Assembly: GCA_036405175.1 (NCBI GenBank)
Contig: DASWYC010000002.1
Location: 251,429 to 315,428, forward strand
From: Minisyncoccota bacterium
GTDB taxonomy: Bacteria; Patescibacteriota; Minisyncoccia; Phycocordibacterales; UBA1006
Direction of reading: 5' to 3'
DNA: 64,000 nt
Shown: positions 7,955 to 21,920 of the stretch, in pieces
How the letters are laid out: every line of letters begins with the position of its first letter
How positions within the stretch are numbered: position 1 is the first letter of the stretch
Notes under the pieces: model-generated
Seen by the model: only the letters and a program-made list of their open reading frames with translations
Told to the model about the DNA's origin: nothing
The model's database searches: none
Made by a program: the position numbers and the translations under genes

Positions 7955-9157
7955 ATGAAAAAAATCTTATGTTACTGCTATCGGAAATTCTTTATACTCG
8001 TATTTATTGCGAGTCTGGGAATCTTTCAAGCTATATGGGAATATGGCAAGAAACCCGAGCGAAAAACCTGGGAAAATACTTTTGAAATACCGCCGGGTAC
8101 TGACCGTTTTAATAACGGTCGGATGTTTGGTGACTTCTGTAATAAGAAGCTTTCAAAAGCTAATGAAAACTTTCATAAAGGCATTCCGTATTCGCCTTAT
8201 ACATGCTATAAGGATTTACGAGAAATTGCACTTTTAAAGAAAGCTCTGGGTATTTTACAGCCCGCACCGCCACACCTTATTACCTTAATGCATGAGGGCG
8301 TCCGGTCAGGTAAATATACCTATAAAGATGTAGCTAAGGCGTATGCAATGTATATGCCCGAAACGTACAATGAAAGAAAGAAGCGCACATATCAGGGTGA
8401 TGTTTGGATTGATATGTCTTCATGGTTATTGAAGATGTATCTAAAAATGTTACCATGGGCTTTCTTGCTGCTCTTAATATGGAATTATGAAAAGAATGAA
8501 TCTTCATCGTTCAAGATTAAGAGTCCTCTTGGTTTTTTCGTTTCGCTGTTAGGGTATCCAATAGTATTAATTATTGTTGCATACCGATGGCTACACTTGA
8601 AACAGCGCTTCTTTGAGGCCTCAGTAGAAATGCGCAGAACACGAGACAACATGCTTGAGCTTTTGTCAGAAGAGGATATACAACTCGCCTGGCGGTACGC
8701 TCACAGTAAAATACGCTTGCAAGATCTGCGCCAAATTCATGGGCGTGCCCTTAAACACTCATTTGGTGCTGCATGGATCGCCACGGTCATCATTACCGTT
8801 GCCCCACAAGCAATCGAGTCTACAGCAACTATGATAGTGGCATATGATGTAGTTATTACAACAACCCACACTTGTTGTTCAAAGAGTAGGCAGTCAAAGG
8901 CGCCACCGGATTTTCTGTACACCGTGTACAAAGATAAAGAAATACCTTCTTTTCTTGTTTACGATATGGAGAGTTTGGAAATTACTAAATATTTGAAACA
9001 TTTTTTTAAAGACTTTGAATCACGGATATTAAAAGGATTTACACGATCTCTTGAGTCTGTGCCGTTATATGGATTAATCTCTGCATTAGGATTAATCACA
9101 TATAAACTCAAAATCAATGAAAAAAATAATCATATTAGCAATAACTTTTTCTGCTGA
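7955..9157 (+). CDS. hypothetical membrane protein (weak)
   Basis: This is a long ORF with hydrophobic segments. It has no motifs and odd composition, so it could be a degenerate gene. Confidence 0.25.
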   Translation: MKKILCYCYRKFFILVFIASLGIFQAIWEYGKKPERKTWENTFEIPPGTDRFNNGRMFGDFCNKKLSKANENFHKGIPYSPYTCYKDLREIALLKKALGILQPAPPHLITLMHEGVRSGKYTYKDVAKAYAMYMPETYNERKKRTYQGDVWIDMSSWLLKMYLKMLPWAFLLLLIWNYEKNESSSFKIKSPLGFFVSLLGYPIVLIIVAYRWLHLKQRFFEASVEMRRTRDNMLELLSEEDIQLAWRYAHSKIRLQDLRQIHGRALKHSFGAAWIATVIITVAPQAIESTATMIVAYDVVITTTHTCCSKSRQSKAPPDFLYTVYKDKEIPSFLVYDMESLEITKYLKHFFKDFESRILKGFTRSLESVPLYGLISALGLITYKLKINEKNNHISNNFFC

Positions 9158-9962
9158 AGTATTAGCCACCAGTGCATGGGCACAAATAGAAAATGTTGCC
9201 ACAAAGGATAGCAATTTAGTTATCAGCAACATCTACGCTGGATTACTAGCATGGACTGGATACAAGCTTGATACATTCTCATTACCATCTGCTGCAACAG
9301 TGCGCGTTGGATCAGTACTTACATGGAAAACTTCTCAAAAACTTTCCATAGAAGTAATGGGAGTATATGAAGCGGGCGCAGGGAAGCCTCTTGTAATTGC
9401 TGCTGGATGGATGCGGTATAGACCTGCTAAAAACTGGAAAGTTATGGCTGGATATATTCCCACACCAATTAGTGAGCAACGACCATTTCCGCTTTCGCCT
9501 GGTGGGCAATTTGAGACATGGACCATGTCTCAAATACCTGGAGGCGCGCTCGGATTTAAAAATACCCTGATTCTTGGTAAAGCCACGTTAGTGAGCGGCA
9601 TTGTCAGAAGATCAGCTGGATTTGAGTATCAGCTTGCTGGCAGCTATGGACCCCTCACAACCGGGCTCTATTATCAGCCCGACTCAAAAAGTATGGGTTT
9701 TGCAACAACACTTACGACTTCAAAAGTCTATAGCTTGCTGGTGATCAAGCCCACCCTCATAGGGAATACAAGCGTACTCAAAGTTGCAAAGAATCTTAAA
9801 ATCTATAATGATTGCGGATTCGACCTTAAAGAGAAAAAGTTTTTACGTGAAGTGTTTGGAATTTTTAGACCTTTCACCTCAAAAACTTTTAAAGGGTTGC
9901 TGAGTTTTAGTTATAGTGTGACAGACAATAGCCTAATAAGTTGTTTGTTCATCCATATATAA
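9117..9962 (+). CDS. secreted beta-strand-rich hypothetical protein
   Basis: The signal peptide is MKKIIILAITFSAEVLATSAWAQ. The mature part has alternating hydrophobic/polar beta-like segments. Confidence 0.45.
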   Translation: MKKIIILAITFSAEVLATSAWAQIENVATKDSNLVISNIYAGLLAWTGYKLDTFSLPSAATVRVGSVLTWKTSQKLSIEVMGVYEAGAGKPLVIAAGWMRYRPAKNWKVMAGYIPTPISEQRPFPLSPGGQFETWTMSQIPGGALGFKNTLILGKATLVSGIVRRSAGFEYQLAGSYGPLTTGLYYQPDSKSMGFATTLTTSKVYSLLVIKPTLIGNTSVLKVAKNLKIYNDCGFDLKEKKFLREVFGIFRPFTSKTFKGLLSFSYSVTDNSLISCLFIHI

Positions 9963-9964
9963 AG

Positions 9965-9996
9965 AATTGCCTCTCAAAAATATGAGAGGCAATTTT
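9965..9996 (+). terminator. intrinsic terminator after the 9117-9962 gene
   Basis: aattgcctctca aaaatat gagaggcaatt followed by ttatttt. It overlaps the nominal ATG at 9967 of the downstream ORF. Confidence 0.45.
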
Positions 9997-10035
9997 ATTT
10001 TCACAACCTATTCTTTGCTTTGCTATACTAGTACC

Positions 10036-12387
10036 ATGATGCGATTTTTTACAACGCTTGCTCCGCTACTTATGATCGTTGGATCATTTTTTACAACAAC
10101 TGCAGCTTCTGCAGCAGTTGAACTTACCGGAAGTAACTCATTTACCGGAACAACCAGTGTTGCAATGCCAATTACCGATCTTCAGCTTACCGGAAGCAGC
10201 GGATCACCCGTGCCAGTTAAGCTTTTGGTAACCAATGGAACACTTTCATTAGGCACCACTACCAATATCACGTTTACCTCAGGAGGAAATAACGCATCCG
10301 CACTTTATTTTAGCGGAACAGTAGCAGATATAAATGCAGCCTTGGCTTCACTCACATATACACGCGGGAGCGCAGGAAGTGACACACTTGAAGTTTCATT
10401 GGTAAATCCTGGAGAAGTATTTTTCCCAGATAATGGACACCTCTATAAATTTATCTCAGGAAGCATCAACTGGAACAGCGCAAAAACAGCAGCAGAAGCC
10501 TTAACTGAATATGGCGTATCAGGATATTTAGTAACCGTAACATCGTCAGCAGAAAATGCCTTTGTTGCCGCACGTCTTGGCGCAGACGGATGGATGGGAG
10601 CAAGCGACGCTGCTCTTGAAGGCGATTGGAAGTGGGTAACCGGACCAGAAACAGGAACATCATTTTGGTCAGGAACATATACGGGAGGGCCAGTAAGTAG
10701 CCGTTATTCCAACTGGAATAATAACGAGCCAAATCAAGCAGGAGAAGAAGATTGTGCGCAATTTTACTCAAGCAGTGGAAAGTGGAATGATCTTTCTTGT
10801 GGAAATAGTATTGGCGGATATGTTGCAGAATTTGGAGCAGGAAGCACTAATCCAACCGTTGTTGCAAAAAATATTTCAATCACAACCGCCAATAATCCAA
10901 CTATAAGCAGCCTTACACCAGCGGATAACTCAACAAACATCACCACGGGAACTAATCTTACCATGGTGTTCAGCACCACTATTTCGGTGGGCACCGGAAA
11001 CATTCTTATTAAAAAGACTTCTGATGACTCAACGGTTGAAACCATTGACGTTGCAAGCGGCAAGGTAACCGGATGGGGAACTAATACTATCGTTATTAAT
11101 CCCGACACTACACTCGCAGAATCTACCGGTTACTATATTTCTATTCCTAATACTGCTTTTAAAGATGGATCAAATCGTTTTTACGCAGGAATTTCCAACA
11201 ATAGCACCTGGAATTTTACGACTGGAGATTTTACTGCACCAGTTTTGAGTGCAATTAATTCTGTGCCATCTTCAACTAGTACAACTATTACCTGGACAAC
11301 TAACGAGAATGCTTCAACACGTGTATCATATGGCGCAACATCATCATACGGTGTAAATACATCAGAAACAGATACCTCACCACGCGTGACCAGTCACACC
11401 GTTAACTTAACCAGCCTTATTCCATGTACTACGTATAACTTCCGCGTAACTTCTACGGATGGATCAGTCAATGCAAACGTAGCTAACTCAACCAACAATA
11501 CGTTTAAGACCACGGGGTGTACTGCAAATTCAGAATCAACTGCACAATCATCAACAAATGTAACAACAAGCAGTACTAGCACAACCTCATTAACCGATTC
11601 ATCAACAACACTCGTTGTTCAAACACCGTCAAACTTTACCACCACACCGTCATTGGTAATTCAAATTCAGTCACTTCCAAGCAAAAATATCATTAGTAAT
11701 ATTGGAACACCATCAGGTATTCCAAATCATATTGGAGATATTGTATTTGATGTTAAAGCAATCGTTAATGCAACAACCGTACTTGATTCATTTGATGCGC
11801 CTGTAACGATTACCTATACGTATACCGATGAAGATATTGAAGGTATTGAGGAATCTACACTGTGGCTGTATCACTACCACAATAACGCATGGGCAAAACT
11901 TGATAACTGTACGGTAGACATGGCAAATAATTTTATTCAATGTACCACCCAAGGATTTTCACTCTTCTCGCTCTTTGGGCAAACGCAACAAGTTGCTACC
12001 AGCAATGCGCTTCGCGCAAAAGGATGTAGAGATTCAAAAGCAAAAAATTATTCTGACTTTGTACTCCATGTGCAAGAAATGTGTGAATACTCGGCAAAGA
12101 CTGCAGACGCAAAAGGAAAGAAGATTAGCACTCCAGTTTTTACCAAAGATTTACAACTTGGATCAAAAGATACGGAAGTCTATGAATTACAAAAATTCCT
12201 CAATAATAATGGATTTGTAATCGCTAAGAATGGAGCAGGATCACCCGGGAAGGAGAGTCAGCAATTTGGTGCGCTTACCAAGAATGCACTTAGATCATTC
12301 CAAAAGGCACATAAGATTTCTCCAGCAACAGGCAATCTGGGACCAATTACTCGTAAATATATTACAGATTTAAGCCAGAAAAAGTAA
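10036..12387 (+). CDS. cell-surface protein with a C-type lectin domain, Ig/FN3-like repeats, a Ser/Thr-rich linker and a C-terminal peptidoglycan-binding domain
   Basis: The start was moved to MMRFFTTLAPLLMIVGSFFTTTAASAA, a signal peptide. The CTLD (about nt 10435-10833) reads WNSAKTAAEAL...ENAFV...WMGASD...EGDWKWV...YSNWNNNEPNQAGEEDCAQF...GKWNDLSCG, with EPN and WND motifs. An FN3-like segment is TITWTTNENASTRVSYG...YNFRVTSTD. The C-terminal PG_binding_1-like segment is ELQKFLNNNGF...FGALTKNALRSFQKAH. Confidence 0.7.
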   Translation: MMRFFTTLAPLLMIVGSFFTTTAASAAVELTGSNSFTGTTSVAMPITDLQLTGSSGSPVPVKLLVTNGTLSLGTTTNITFTSGGNNASALYFSGTVADINAALASLTYTRGSAGSDTLEVSLVNPGEVFFPDNGHLYKFISGSINWNSAKTAAEALTEYGVSGYLVTVTSSAENAFVAARLGADGWMGASDAALEGDWKWVTGPETGTSFWSGTYTGGPVSSRYSNWNNNEPNQAGEEDCAQFYSSSGKWNDLSCGNSIGGYVAEFGAGSTNPTVVAKNISITTANNPTISSLTPADNSTNITTGTNLTMVFSTTISVGTGNILIKKTSDDSTVETIDVASGKVTGWGTNTIVINPDTTLAESTGYYISIPNTAFKDGSNRFYAGISNNSTWNFTTGDFTAPVLSAINSVPSSTSTTITWTTNENASTRVSYGATSSYGVNTSETDTSPRVTSHTVNLTSLIPCTTYNFRVTSTDGSVNANVANSTNNTFKTTGCTANSESTAQSSTNVTTSSTSTTSLTDSSTTLVVQTPSNFTTTPSLVIQIQSLPSKNIISNIGTPSGIPNHIGDIVFDVKAIVNATTVLDSFDAPVTITYTYTDEDIEGIEESTLWLYHYHNNAWAKLDNCTVDMANNFIQCTTQGFSLFSLFGQTQQVATSNALRAKGCRDSKAKNYSDFVLHVQEMCEYSAKTADAKGKKISTPVFTKDLQLGSKDTEVYELQKFLNNNGFVIAKNGAGSPGKESQQFGALTKNALRSFQKAHKISPATGNLGPITRKYITDLSQKK

Positions 12388-12458
12388 ATGAAATTTGAAT
12401 GAAGCTCATCATGCGTGATGGGTTTTCATTTTGAGAGATAGGCGTATACTACCAGTAT

Positions 12459-20243: not shown

Positions 20244-21920
20244 TTATATATGTTCAACTTTTCCAATATCTTGAGTTTTGATAACTGGTTCTTCAACACC
20301 ATCGTACATAATTTTGCTTGAATCACGCGCAGTAGCTTCAAGCGCACCGGTTGCATGAACTTCTGCACGAGCAACATCATTGGTTATTACCACAGCTTTA
20401 TTCACCATCAATTCCATTCCTTCAAATCGGCTTGCATCATTCATTTCTAACGCAAGATTTGCCGCCGTACCGGTAAGCATACTGCGTGATACATCTTCTT
20501 GTTTAATCACAAGATCTTTCACTTCAAGCATACCTTCTAAGCGTGATGCATCTTGCAATATAATCTTCACAGCATCGCCCTTGAATGAGTCTACGGTAAT
20601 GCGTGAAATATCATGTGCGGCAATTTCAGCAAGTGATGGTACGGTGATAGTGATGTCAGGATCTTGTTCACGACCACATCCTAAACACCAATCGTCATTC
20701 TTTTCGTTAATCTTCAATACACTATCCTTAACACCAAACTGCAAACGATCAAGGCGAGCCTGCACACCTTGTGCAGTTACTGAGTATTCATCACCTTGTA
20801 TAACTTTTACGCGAGTTGAATCATACAGATCAAGCTTGGTAAAATCTTTCACATCAATGACTTTACTCACTGTTTGCTGCTGCGGAAGATTCTCAATATT
20901 ATTGCTAATCTGTGGCGCATATTTAAGGGCCAAAGTCCCTGCAGTAAACAAAGATACAATCCAAATACTCAACAACGTAATTACCGCTGTGAGGCCCATT
21001 TTTCGCTTTGCAGAGAGCATTGAAACACCAATAGCTGCAACAAAGAGCGCAGGAATAAAGAGGATAATAAATCCAAGAATCACGGCAATATAATAGAGCC
21101 CACCTGGAATAACTTGCTCAATAGGGAAGTTTATATACCCGCTACTTGCATTGAAGATCATATTGATTACCACAAAGATAAACAAGAGGATCATCATGAT
21201 CGGAACAACGGTAAGAAATAGTCCCATAAGTTTTACAAAAATCTTCCAGATACCACGTACCACGATACCAAAGATTTCAAAAATCTTTTCGATAAATCTG
21301 CGGAGTGGAGAACCTTCTTCTCCCATCTTTTTACTATTCTTAGTAAAATCATCAACGTGTTCACGCATCGTTTCTTTAAATGAGTTAAGCGTCATTGGTC
21401 CACCACGCATTTTGATCTTATCTGCTTGAGTAATTGCTTTTGGAACAAATATTGCAAGTGCAATATACGCAAAGATAAATGCTCCGGTAGTAAAGATAGC
21501 AAGGACAACAAAAATACCTCGCATCAAAAGTGGATCAATACCAAAGTACGCCGCAAGCCCCGATGCAACACCGGCAACAATTGCGTCATCAGGATCTCGG
21601 TAGAGTTTACGCGGAGCAGATGCTTCTTCTTTTGATTCTGACTGTTCTCCCGCTTCATCGCCAGTAATTTCTTCAACCGTTCCCATAGAAGTAATAACCG
21701 CATTCACATCTTCAAGTGTCACAATATTATTATGAGATTTAATAGCCTCAAGAAGCTGCTCGGCAATGCGCGCTTCAATATCATCAACAACATCCTGGTT
21801 GTCAGGAGTTTTACCAAAATATGATTTTATAGAATTCAAATACTGACTAAGGCGATCAAATGCATCTTCTTCAATGGTGAAGAGGCTGCCAGCCAATGTG
21901 ATTTGTAGTGCTTTTTTCAT
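20244..21920 (-). CDS. PspC-domain envelope-stress membrane protein with a C-terminal DUF4097-like putative beta-helical domain
   Basis: The PspC domain is LYRDPDDAIVAGVASGLAAYFGIDPLLMRGIFVV. It has multiple TM helices and a long extracytoplasmic C-terminal region. Confidence 0.6.
   Translation of the reverse strand: MKKALQITLAGSLFTIEEDAFDRLSQYLNSIKSYFGKTPDNQDVVDDIEARIAEQLLEAIKSHNNIVTLEDVNAVITSMGTVEEITGDEAGEQSESKEEASAPRKLYRDPDDAIVAGVASGLAAYFGIDPLLMRGIFVVLAIFTTGAFIFAYIALAIFVPKAITQADKIKMRGGPMTLNSFKETMREHVDDFTKNSKKMGEEGSPLRRFIEKIFEIFGIVVRGIWKIFVKLMGLFLTVVPIMMILLFIFVVINMIFNASSGYINFPIEQVIPGGLYYIAVILGFIILFIPALFVAAIGVSMLSAKRKMGLTAVITLLSIWIVSLFTAGTLALKYAPQISNNIENLPQQQTVSKVIDVKDFTKLDLYDSTRVKVIQGDEYSVTAQGVQARLDRLQFGVKDSVLKINEKNDDWCLGCGREQDPDITITVPSLAEIAAHDISRITVDSFKGDAVKIILQDASRLEGMLEVKDLVIKQEDVSRSMLTGTAANLALEMNDASRFEGMELMVNKAVVITNDVARAEVHATGALEATARDSSKIMYDGVEEPVIKTQDIGKVEHI

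Follow-up and report, generated by a model that had tools for sequence, protein, structure and literature searches.

A 64,000-nucleotide stretch of the forward strand of contig DASWYC010000002.1 (Minisyncoccota bacterium, assembly GCA_036405175.1; hereafter the window) encodes a 783-amino-acid protein that we consider, with a probability of about 0.6, to be a secreted, wall-associated, Ca2+-dependent lectin of a Paceibacteria-class bacterium (Patescibacteria or Candidate Phyla Radiation, CPR), probably serving adhesion to glycans. Over its full length the product matches, at 100% identity, the NCBI protein P0001, which originates from a metagenome-assembled genome (MAG) of Candidatus Paceibacterota (contig of 667,975 bp) and is named 'Ig-like domain-containing protein [Candidatus Paceibacterota bacterium]'. 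A preliminary description of the window, made from its sequence, had attributed the gene to a reduced-genome bacterium, and the source is indeed a Patescibacterium.

The central element of the protein is its C-type lectin-like domain (CTLD), which matches the Pfam family Lectin_C at residues 161–257 with 44.5 bits (cut-off 22.6; E = 2.9e-11). A sequence search against the PDB returned approximately 100 carbohydrate-recognition domains (CRDs), with SIGN-R1, DC-SIGN(R), CD23 and langerin as the best matches (E ~1e-10). Residues 118–275 were modelled by AlphaFold2 with a predicted local distance difference test (pLDDT) of 93.5 and a predicted template modelling score (pTM) of 0.88, and the model contains the two helices, the two beta-sheets and the long-loop region of the CTLD fold. 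Foldseek placed it closest to animal CRDs that bind sugars (CD23, SRCL, MGL, DC-SIGNR and CEL-I), with E values down to 2e-10 and target-normalised TM-scores of 0.80–0.85. The canonical domain with EPN and WND motifs claimed in the preliminary description was therefore confirmed in sequence and in fold, as a long-form CTLD. Its proposed span (residues 157–289) captured a real domain but not the start, which lies at approximately residues 126–130 (GHLYKF).

The residues aligning with the two Ca2+ sites of DC-SIGN-type lectins are all present. Positions 10726–10800 of the window translate to EPNQAGEEDCAQFYSSSGKWNDLSC, and the motifs ENAFV (residues 173–177) and WMGASD (residues 186–191) lie ahead of this segment. 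Aligned with SIGN-R1, the protein shows the same spacing in E231-P232-N233-x3-E237-E238-D239-C240 and in W250-N251-D252-x2-C255, and the EPN/WND spacing is also that of DC-SIGN. At Ca2+ site 2, E231-P232-N233, E238 and N251-D252 match SIGN-R1 column for column. At Ca2+ site 1, D191, E195 and D239 are invariant in the family and position 234 may hold Asp, Gln or Asn; the auxiliary-site Asp and Glu of SIGN-R1 correspond to D191 and E195. We take the aligned positions to be all the side-chain ligands of sites 1 and 2, as in the structures of DC-SIGN and of mannose-binding protein (MBP). The EPN triplet predicts a specificity of the mannose, N-acetylglucosamine (GlcNAc), glucose or fucose type.

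These residues are conserved across a large family. A protein database search yielded 541 hits among 8,000 candidates scored, and the 120 best were aligned. All 120 are near full length (47–79% identity, at least 78% query coverage, at least 707 bits), almost all share the same precomputed architecture, and the Lectin_C family is precomputed for every one of them. Those that are named appear as 'lectin-like protein', 'peptidoglycan-binding protein' or 'Ig-like domain-containing protein' of Paceibacterota, Pacebacteria or Patescibacteria. Residues D191, E195, E231, P232, N233, E238, D239, C240, W250, N251, D252 and C255 are invariant in 120/120 members. The preliminary description had asked whether homologues keep EPN or switch to QPD: EPN is kept throughout the 120 aligned members, none of which carries QPD, and QPD was seen in wider relatives. 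Of all the domains, the CTLD is conserved best (63% mean identity to the query, 30 of 143 positions invariant), and the linker region at residues 651–700 and the signal peptide are the least conserved (17% and 21% identity, respectively). Loop positions flanking the primary site vary among members (residues 228–230, 234–237, 243–249 and 256–260).

In a scan that took one genome per species, full-length relatives were found only in Patescibacteria-type MAGs (L001–L015), some of whose taxon labels are automatic and unconfirmed ('uncultured Gammaproteobacteria', 'Saccharibacteria'). Five of these loci (L005, L006, L007, L009 and L010) encode members anchored by LysM and lie on contigs of up to 1.6 Mb in records titled 'uncultured Gammaproteobacteria bacterium'; their closest relative lies in a genome titled Candidatus Roizmanbacteria UBA1450. 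The Gammaproteobacteria titles may reflect automatic misassignment, or the family may reach beyond Patescibacteria. When the UBA1450 locus was compared by tblastx, only the lectin gene itself was informative.

The rest of the protein consists of beta-rich domains and a terminal anchor (Table 1). The full-length AlphaFold2 model, built with 109 family sequences, has a mean pLDDT of 91.8 and a pTM of 0.58, which indicates that the domains are confident and that their mutual orientation is undefined. The putative signal peptide lacks a lipobox Cys and includes a low-confidence helix at residues 3–17 in the model; its presence agrees with the earlier claim of a secreted protein, and export is probable. 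The N-terminal beta domain is modelled at a pLDDT of at least 92 and has a mean identity of 56% in the family; it matched no Pfam family, and profile searches found no solved relative. Behind the CTLD, residues 286–396 match Big_5 with 46.8 bits (cut-off 23.6). Residues 412–492 match Pur_ac_phosph_N (26.7 bits) and fn3 (22.3 bits), both under the Pfam cut-offs, yet this region is modelled as a beta-sandwich, and its Cys 464, together with Cys 495, is invariant in the family. The Ig- and FN3-like repeats announced after the lectin domain are thus present.

The last beta-sandwich domain (residues 495–650) resembles only weakly the NCBIfam family PGF-pre-PGF (TIGR04213; residues 602–647, E = 0.002, under the cut-off), and the profile search found no solved relative. 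It presents a conserved motif (YHYH..W..L..C...N.I.C..FS.F.LFG), a Cys pair (625/636), a gap fraction of 0.00 in the family and a Ser/Thr-rich N-terminal part. The Ser/Thr-rich stretch spans approximately 50 residues (481–530) with a peak of 62% S+T. It belongs to this domain because it is modelled as strands, at a pLDDT of ~95, and shows zero length variation. For the same reasons we rejected the possibility that it is a disordered linker, and the 80-residue Ser/Thr-rich linker of the preliminary description is in fact shorter and folded. Between two flexible linkers and ahead of the peptidoglycan-binding domain, positions 12022–12090 (residues 663–685) encode a small two-Cys module, GC.D..A.NY...C.Y, with Cys 664 and 683; a similar motif is seen in relatives (e.g., GCHDPKAINYN...CRYG in P0093). 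Overall, the eight Cys of the protein form four sequence-local pairs (240/255, 464/495, 625/636 and 664/683), a pattern that would fit an extracellular protein.

The C-terminal domain expected from the preliminary description was recovered as PG_binding_1 (PF01471; residues 712–774, 39.8 bits, cut-off 23), with a three-helix bundle fold in the model. The C-terminal end is the variable module of the family, and the head and stalk are constant. Most of the 120 members end in PG_binding_1 and approximately 10 of them in LysM (e.g., P0043); in P0031 and P0079 a CarboxypepD_reg-like domain precedes a C-terminal transmembrane helix with its basic tail, and a few members possess an additional FN3 domain or a different C-terminal domain. 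The exchange of PG_binding_1, LysM and a transmembrane helix at this end supports the C-terminus as the anchor and the lectin as facing outward. PG_binding_1 would then hold the protein on the cell's own peptidoglycan. The window encodes a penicillin-binding protein (PBP) transpeptidase, which indicates that the organism makes peptidoglycan, the substrate of such an anchor.

Two related loci bear on the stalk and anchor. In another Patescibacterial genome (L081/L082:2362-3621), a second surface protein, with TIG/PKD-like beta-sandwiches and PG_binding_1, is encoded ~4.4 kb upstream of the lectin homologue, which suggests that the stalk-plus-PG_binding_1 design is apparently reused for other heads. 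In UBA1450, approximately 5 kb downstream of the lectin gene (L004:15040-16068, minus strand), tblastx revealed a partial paralogue of the FN3-like and beta-sandwich part with 33–47% identity.

We extended the search beyond full-length relatives by comparing the 245-residue head exhaustively, with HMMER, with 1.84 billion representatives clustered at 50% identity, a library without taxonomy. Thresholds of E <= 1e-3, 1e-10 and 1e-30 gave 12,402, 4,266 and 639 hits, respectively; animal proteins are presumably present in the weakest tier. Among the hits are giant proteins of up to 6,674 residues in which the N-terminal domain is repeated up to ~30 times or CTLDs are numerous; the N-terminal domain has 29–32 matched stretches in P0121 and P0130, and P0121 also carries DUF4347 and Cadherin_4. 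In Flavobacteriia (Confluentibacter, Flavobacterium, Polaribacter, Mariniflexile), Ig_7 repeats and then a CHU_C tail for type IX secretion follow the head, and the N-terminal domain was matched beside the CTLD in three loci (L023, L026 and L063). The statement in the preliminary description that complete EPN/WND domains are uncommon in bacteria was overstated, given the 639 head relatives at the strictest threshold and their occurrence in Flavobacteriia, Micavibrio, Myxococcales, Bradymonadia and Clostridia.

Across the fetched loci, including 15 family loci, 51 CTLD stretches were matched; 39 of them retain EPN, and WND is retained in all 50 alignable ones. In the copies from Flavobacteriia, the inner disulfide is missing as well (E-D-Y) and the scores are under the Pfam Lectin_C threshold. 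QPD variants occur in the wider group (e.g., P0125 and P0265). P0265 (901 residues) has only the head in common with our protein (46% identity) and reads NQPD...EHC...WNDLPC, with the inner disulfide kept and an unrelated C-terminal body; by its motif it is a natural switch from EPN to the galactose-type QPD.

Other bacterial settings of the domain were also observed. In Micavibrio sp. UBA1850 (L058:429-2549), a CTLD is embedded in RTX nonapeptide repeats. EPN/WND CTLDs were likewise found in Bradymonadia and Myxococcales (L077, L079 and L080), one Bradymonadia locus having three CTLD stretches. Such domains recur, on surface or secreted proteins, in known predatory groups, where prey recognition is a possible role. 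A Clostridia MAG (L078:6612-10616) encodes a protein of 1,335 residues in which six tandem Lectin_C domains are combined with ricin-B domains and, at the C-terminus, a type I dockerin; most of these Lectin_C domains carry EPN/WND, a Cys occupies their C1 position, and the protein resembles a cellulosome-style multi-lectin.

Together, these features suggest how the protein might work. It would be exported by the Sec pathway with a cleavable signal peptide, and its C-terminal PG_binding_1 domain would grip the cell's own peptidoglycan non-covalently. The three beta-sandwich domains (Big_5, FN3-like and PGF-pre-PGF-like) would form a stalk displaying outward the N-terminal beta domain and the CTLD as a head. 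The Ca2+ held by E231, N233, E238, N251 and D252 would be coordinated by a mannose-, GlcNAc-, glucose- or fucose-type sugar through its neighbouring equatorial 3-OH and 4-OH groups, and a second, structural Ca2+ would be held by D191, E195, Q234 and D239. The likeliest role would be adhesion to glycans of another cell (host or partner), of a surface or of a matrix.

By analogy with studied relatives, a role in host attachment is plausible. Paceibacteria living as parasites of methanogens express secreted proteins with peptidoglycan-binding domains at high levels, and a function of these proteins in host attachment has been proposed (PMC10936435). For Saccharibacteria, glycan-based host attachment has been proposed, with the specific lectins and target sugars still to be identified (PMC11623550, PMC10633639), and epibiotic growth requires envelope proteins with polysaccharide-binding domains (PMC10633639). 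A broader and more tentative reading, which we regard as possible and on balance doubtful, is that the family is a general device with which the Paceibacteria class recognises host glycans and attaches to hosts, its EPN site binding a common sugar of the host envelope, for instance GlcNAc or mannose in the S-layers, sheaths or wall polymers of archaea or bacteria. It would then represent the first identified lectin adhesin of the uncultured CPR majority and an ancient bacterial C-type lectin lineage independent of animals.

Several observations weigh against a wall-anchored adhesin with EPN-type specificity. Of the two disulfides of canonical CTLDs, only the inner pair C2–C3 (C240/C255) is present. 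The C1 position is Ala153 in 120/120 members and the C4 position is Ala264 here and Val or Ala in the family, so that the conserved cysteines expected in the preliminary description were found for the inner pair but replaced in the outer one. Since close bacterial relatives do without both pairs, this feature does not define the bacterial CTLD branch. An insertion of ~14 residues (GPETGTSFWSG...; GPE.GT.FW.G in the family) precedes the EPN loop and, located beside the binding loop, could alter specificity. PG_binding_1 could in principle bind the wall of a partner instead of the cell's own. No conserved gene neighbourhood ties the lectin gene to pili or secretion systems. The peptidoglycan-binding proteins of Kuroda et al. 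(PMC10936435) carry no lectin annotation, and a same-family link with them could not be established. Finally, full-length conservation (47–79% identity with an invariant site) is unusually high for a host-specific adhesin, and the very strong conservation of the binding site argues for a conserved ligand rather than a host-specific one.

This last point leads to the main rival explanation, which we consider unlikely: the lectin might be directed at the cell's own envelope, binding one of its own glycans, for instance on a glycosylated S-layer or a secondary wall polymer, or the same glycan on sister cells. It would then tether or order the outer layer of the envelope on the peptidoglycan, or promote self-aggregation, without any host recognition. 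Conservation of the protein and its site across more than 100 lineages is what a self-made, conserved ligand would lead one to expect, and binding modules at both ends of the protein are tether-like. This explanation would also account for the lack of a paralogue in the window, of hypervariability and of a link to host-interaction gene clusters. However, the same head is found in other phyla on proteins with type IX secretion system (T9SS), RTX or dockerin modules, which are typical outward-facing adhesins or binders, and the varying loops around the primary site fit tuning to different external glycans.

Alternatively, and with still lower probability, the lectin might serve nutrition, gathering environmental polysaccharides or glycoconjugates for degradation and uptake by a sugar fermenter with reduced metabolism, much as non-catalytic carbohydrate-binding modules or surface glycan-binding proteins do. 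The position of the lectin on a wall anchor and the absence of a catalytic domain would suit this role, as would an apparently conserved ligand class and the related Clostridia CTLDs that sit on a dockerin protein with ricin-B domains, a polysaccharide-utilisation setting. Yet no glycoside hydrolase or sugar transporter is adjacent to the gene or conserved beside it, and the nearest putative glycosyl hydrolase (DUF4015) lies ~22 kb away on the other strand. Moreover, a single low-affinity CRD site suits multivalent cell-surface adhesion better than substrate capture, which weighs against a nutritional role.

It is very improbable that the domain is a variable protein of a diversity-generating retroelement (DGR) or a recent animal transfer or contaminant instead of a stable bacterial lectin: although Patescibacteria are described in two reports as rich in DGRs with C-type-lectin-fold targets (PMC11661182, PMC8144416) and the best solved-structure matches are all animal proteins, a DGR target was rejected given the invariant, not hypervariable, binding site, the canonical Lectin_C match and the lack in the window of a lectin paralogue or template-like repeat (E <= 1; only chance matches of 15–29 nt), and an animal origin conflicts with the more than 500 relatives on bacterial contigs (up to ~1.3 Mb), with a terminator and promoter-like site of bacterial type and with a CTLD closer to bacterial CTLDs outside the family (~44% identity, E ~1e-34) than to animal CRDs (~30%, E ~1e-10). 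The term 'animal-type' used in the preliminary description thus fits the motif but not the origin of the domain.

The open reading frame (ORF) of the lectin gene extends from 9967 to 12387 on the plus strand when initiated at TTG (806 residues) and gives the 783-residue product from the ATG at 10036. We favour the ATG because the TTG sits inside a stable hairpin (9963–9996; 14-bp stem, -20.1 kcal/mol, z -7.8, equalled by 0 of 200 shuffles). The hairpin, which was also listed as an inverted repeat, and its U-run are likely the intrinsic terminator of the upstream ORF. The TTG start was rejected on this ground, and also because the ATG form is the deposited protein and a promoter-like site precedes the ATG. 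This site has 10 of 12 consensus matches, and it is a consensus match only, such sites not being enriched relative to shuffled sequences in the region. Its -10 box stops 6 nt ahead of the ATG and no Shine-Dalgarno-like sequence is visible upstream of this codon; the mRNA may lack a leader or carry only a very short one. The hairpin after the stop codon is a possible, weak terminator of the lectin gene, which a terminator scan did not list. With a terminator and a promoter-like site at its borders, the gene appears to be monocistronic.

Table 1. Positions, in the window, of the lectin gene, the domains and motifs of its product and the flanking transcription signals.
Feature	Position (nt)	Strand	Description
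Hairpin and U-run	9963–10004	+	Right after the stop of the upstream ORF; covers TTG 9967
Promoter-like site	10000–10029	+	TTCACA, 18-nt spacer, TGcTATACT (TG-extended -10)
Lectin coding sequence	10036–12387	+	783 residues; stop codon within
Putative signal peptide, Sec-type	10036–10116	+	Residues 1–27: MMR, hydrophobic core, A-S-A before AVE; read from the sequence
N-terminal beta-sandwich domain, one helix	10117–10410	+	Residues 28–125; motif INAALASLTYTR..G.DTLEVSL
C-type lectin domain, long-form	10411–10839	+	Residues 126–268; single disulfide C240-C255
EPN triplet	10726–10734	+	Residues 231–233; mannose/GlcNAc/glucose/fucose-type determinant of Ca2+ site 2
E238-D239-C240	10747–10755	+	Align with DC-SIGN-type site 2 Glu, site 1 Asp and Cys C2
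W250-N251-D252 through C255 (Cys C3)	10783–10800	+	WND motif; N and D are site 2 ligands by alignment
Big_5 bacterial Ig-like domain	10861–11229	+	Residues 276–398; all-beta, pLDDT at least 93
FN3-like beta-sandwich	11230–11517	+	Residues 399–494; Cys pair 464/495; confident model
Beta-sandwich domain	11518–11985	+	Residues 495–650; pLDDT 87–96, strands from residue 503
Two flexible linkers around two-Cys module	11986–12135	+	Residues 651–700; pLDDT <50 at residues 655–658 and 687–696
PG_binding_1 domain, three-helix bundle	12136–12384	+	Residues 701–783; presumed cell-wall anchor
Weaker hairpin and U-rich run	12397–12432	+	After the stop codon; -13.8 kcal/mol, z -2.15

Nearby in the window lie the gene of a YibE/F membrane protein, two upstream ORFs without a family match, two small downstream ORFs without known function and a P-type ATPase gene. 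The flanking proteins of the window are absent beside the homologues in 80 loci, and the neighbours also differ in L081/L082. The ORF directly upstream (9117–9962, plus strand; 281 residues) has a signal-peptide-like N-terminus and a beta-rich alternating pattern; it has no Pfam match, and its sole match among 5.8 billion proteins is itself (NCBI hypothetical protein VGE63_01545). It overlaps by 41 nt the preceding ORF (7955–9157), which encodes a membrane-protein-like product of 400 residues. Further away, positions 20244–21920 of the minus strand encode a protein of 558 residues with a PspC domain, a PspC transmembrane region and a C-terminal DUF2807 ('putative auto-transporter adhesin head GIN domain').

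Little is understood of the means by which ultrasmall Patescibacteria find and keep their hosts, least of all in the Paceibacteria, a class much larger than the Saccharibacteria. The family described here offers a compact and expressible candidate: a head of ~245 residues whose Ca2+/EPN site is fully conserved and which occurs across hundreds of lineages. Glycan arrays could reveal its ligand, and the labelled head could be used to stain candidate host cells in environmental samples. Canonical and apparently functional CTLDs constitute a broad bacterial lineage placed on at least five anchoring systems, which qualifies the view of the CRD as an animal invention. Our literature search returned DGR CLec proteins, animal lectins and PA14-type lectins of RTX adhesins, and no description of this family or of any Patescibacterial Lectin_C adhesin. 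All the domains are already known, databases already label relatives as lectin-like, and the head-stalk-anchor design is that of known bacterial adhesins. The value of the family thus lies in a candidate lectin for host or glycan recognition in CPR bacteria and not in a new principle; should it bind no sugar, or only its own envelope, it would be an ordinary surface protein.

Among known systems, there is a distant likeness to the CLec variable proteins of DGRs (Mtd, TvpA and Patescibacterial targets), which belong distantly to the same fold superfamily, are surface ligand-binding modules and are common in Patescibacteria. Our protein differs from them in its invariant binding residues and in having no template repeat in the window. 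To our knowledge, DGR targets also lack the canonical Ca2+-site motifs that the lectin protein has. The proteins of Kuroda et al. 2024 (PMC10936435) come from the same class and share a signal peptide, a beta-rich extracellular body and a peptidoglycan-binding domain; PMX_810_sub_00350 (2079 nt), compared by annotation alone, is listed by them without any Pfam or lectin annotation.

The animal EPN-type CRDs (DC-SIGN/SIGN-R1, CD23, langerin, SRCL and the collectins CL-K1, MBP and SP-D) share with our protein the Pfam family PF00059, the EPN-x3-EED-C and WND-x2-C spacing, the auxiliary Asp and Glu and the inner C2–C3 disulfide. In contrast to these CRDs, with which it has only ~26–30% identity, our protein lacks the outer C1–C4 disulfide, carries the ~14-residue insertion and possesses, instead of a coiled-coil neck or transmembrane stalk, a preceding bacterial beta domain and a peptidoglycan-binding anchor; its sugar binding is predicted only.

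Fibrillar-adhesin-like proteins combine an adhesive domain, a stalk and an anchor, with PG_binding_1 and LysM among the listed anchors (Monzon, Lafita and Bateman, bioRxiv 10.1101/2020.12.07.414375). Our protein likewise has a distal binding domain that would be adhesive, a beta-sandwich stalk and a cell anchor. It differs in being short (783 residues), in having three different single stalk domains where tandem repeats are expected, in its predicted non-covalent anchoring without an LPXTG motif and in belonging to a Patescibacteria family.

Finally, our protein resembles the bacterial CTLD heads of Confluentibacter citreus (L025), Flavobacterium flevense (L064), the Micavibrio RTX protein (L058) and the giant DUF4347/Cadherin_4 protein (P0121). 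These are the nearest CTLDs outside the family (35–50% identity, E down to 1e-34). They have the same insertion, mostly keep EPN and WND, present Ala and Val at the outer-disulfide positions and share the N-terminal partner domain in Flavobacteriia and, as a repeat, in the giants. They differ in their T9SS tails, RTX/type I secretion system (T1SS) modules or dockerin anchors, in often carrying many CTLD copies and in including some QPD variants.

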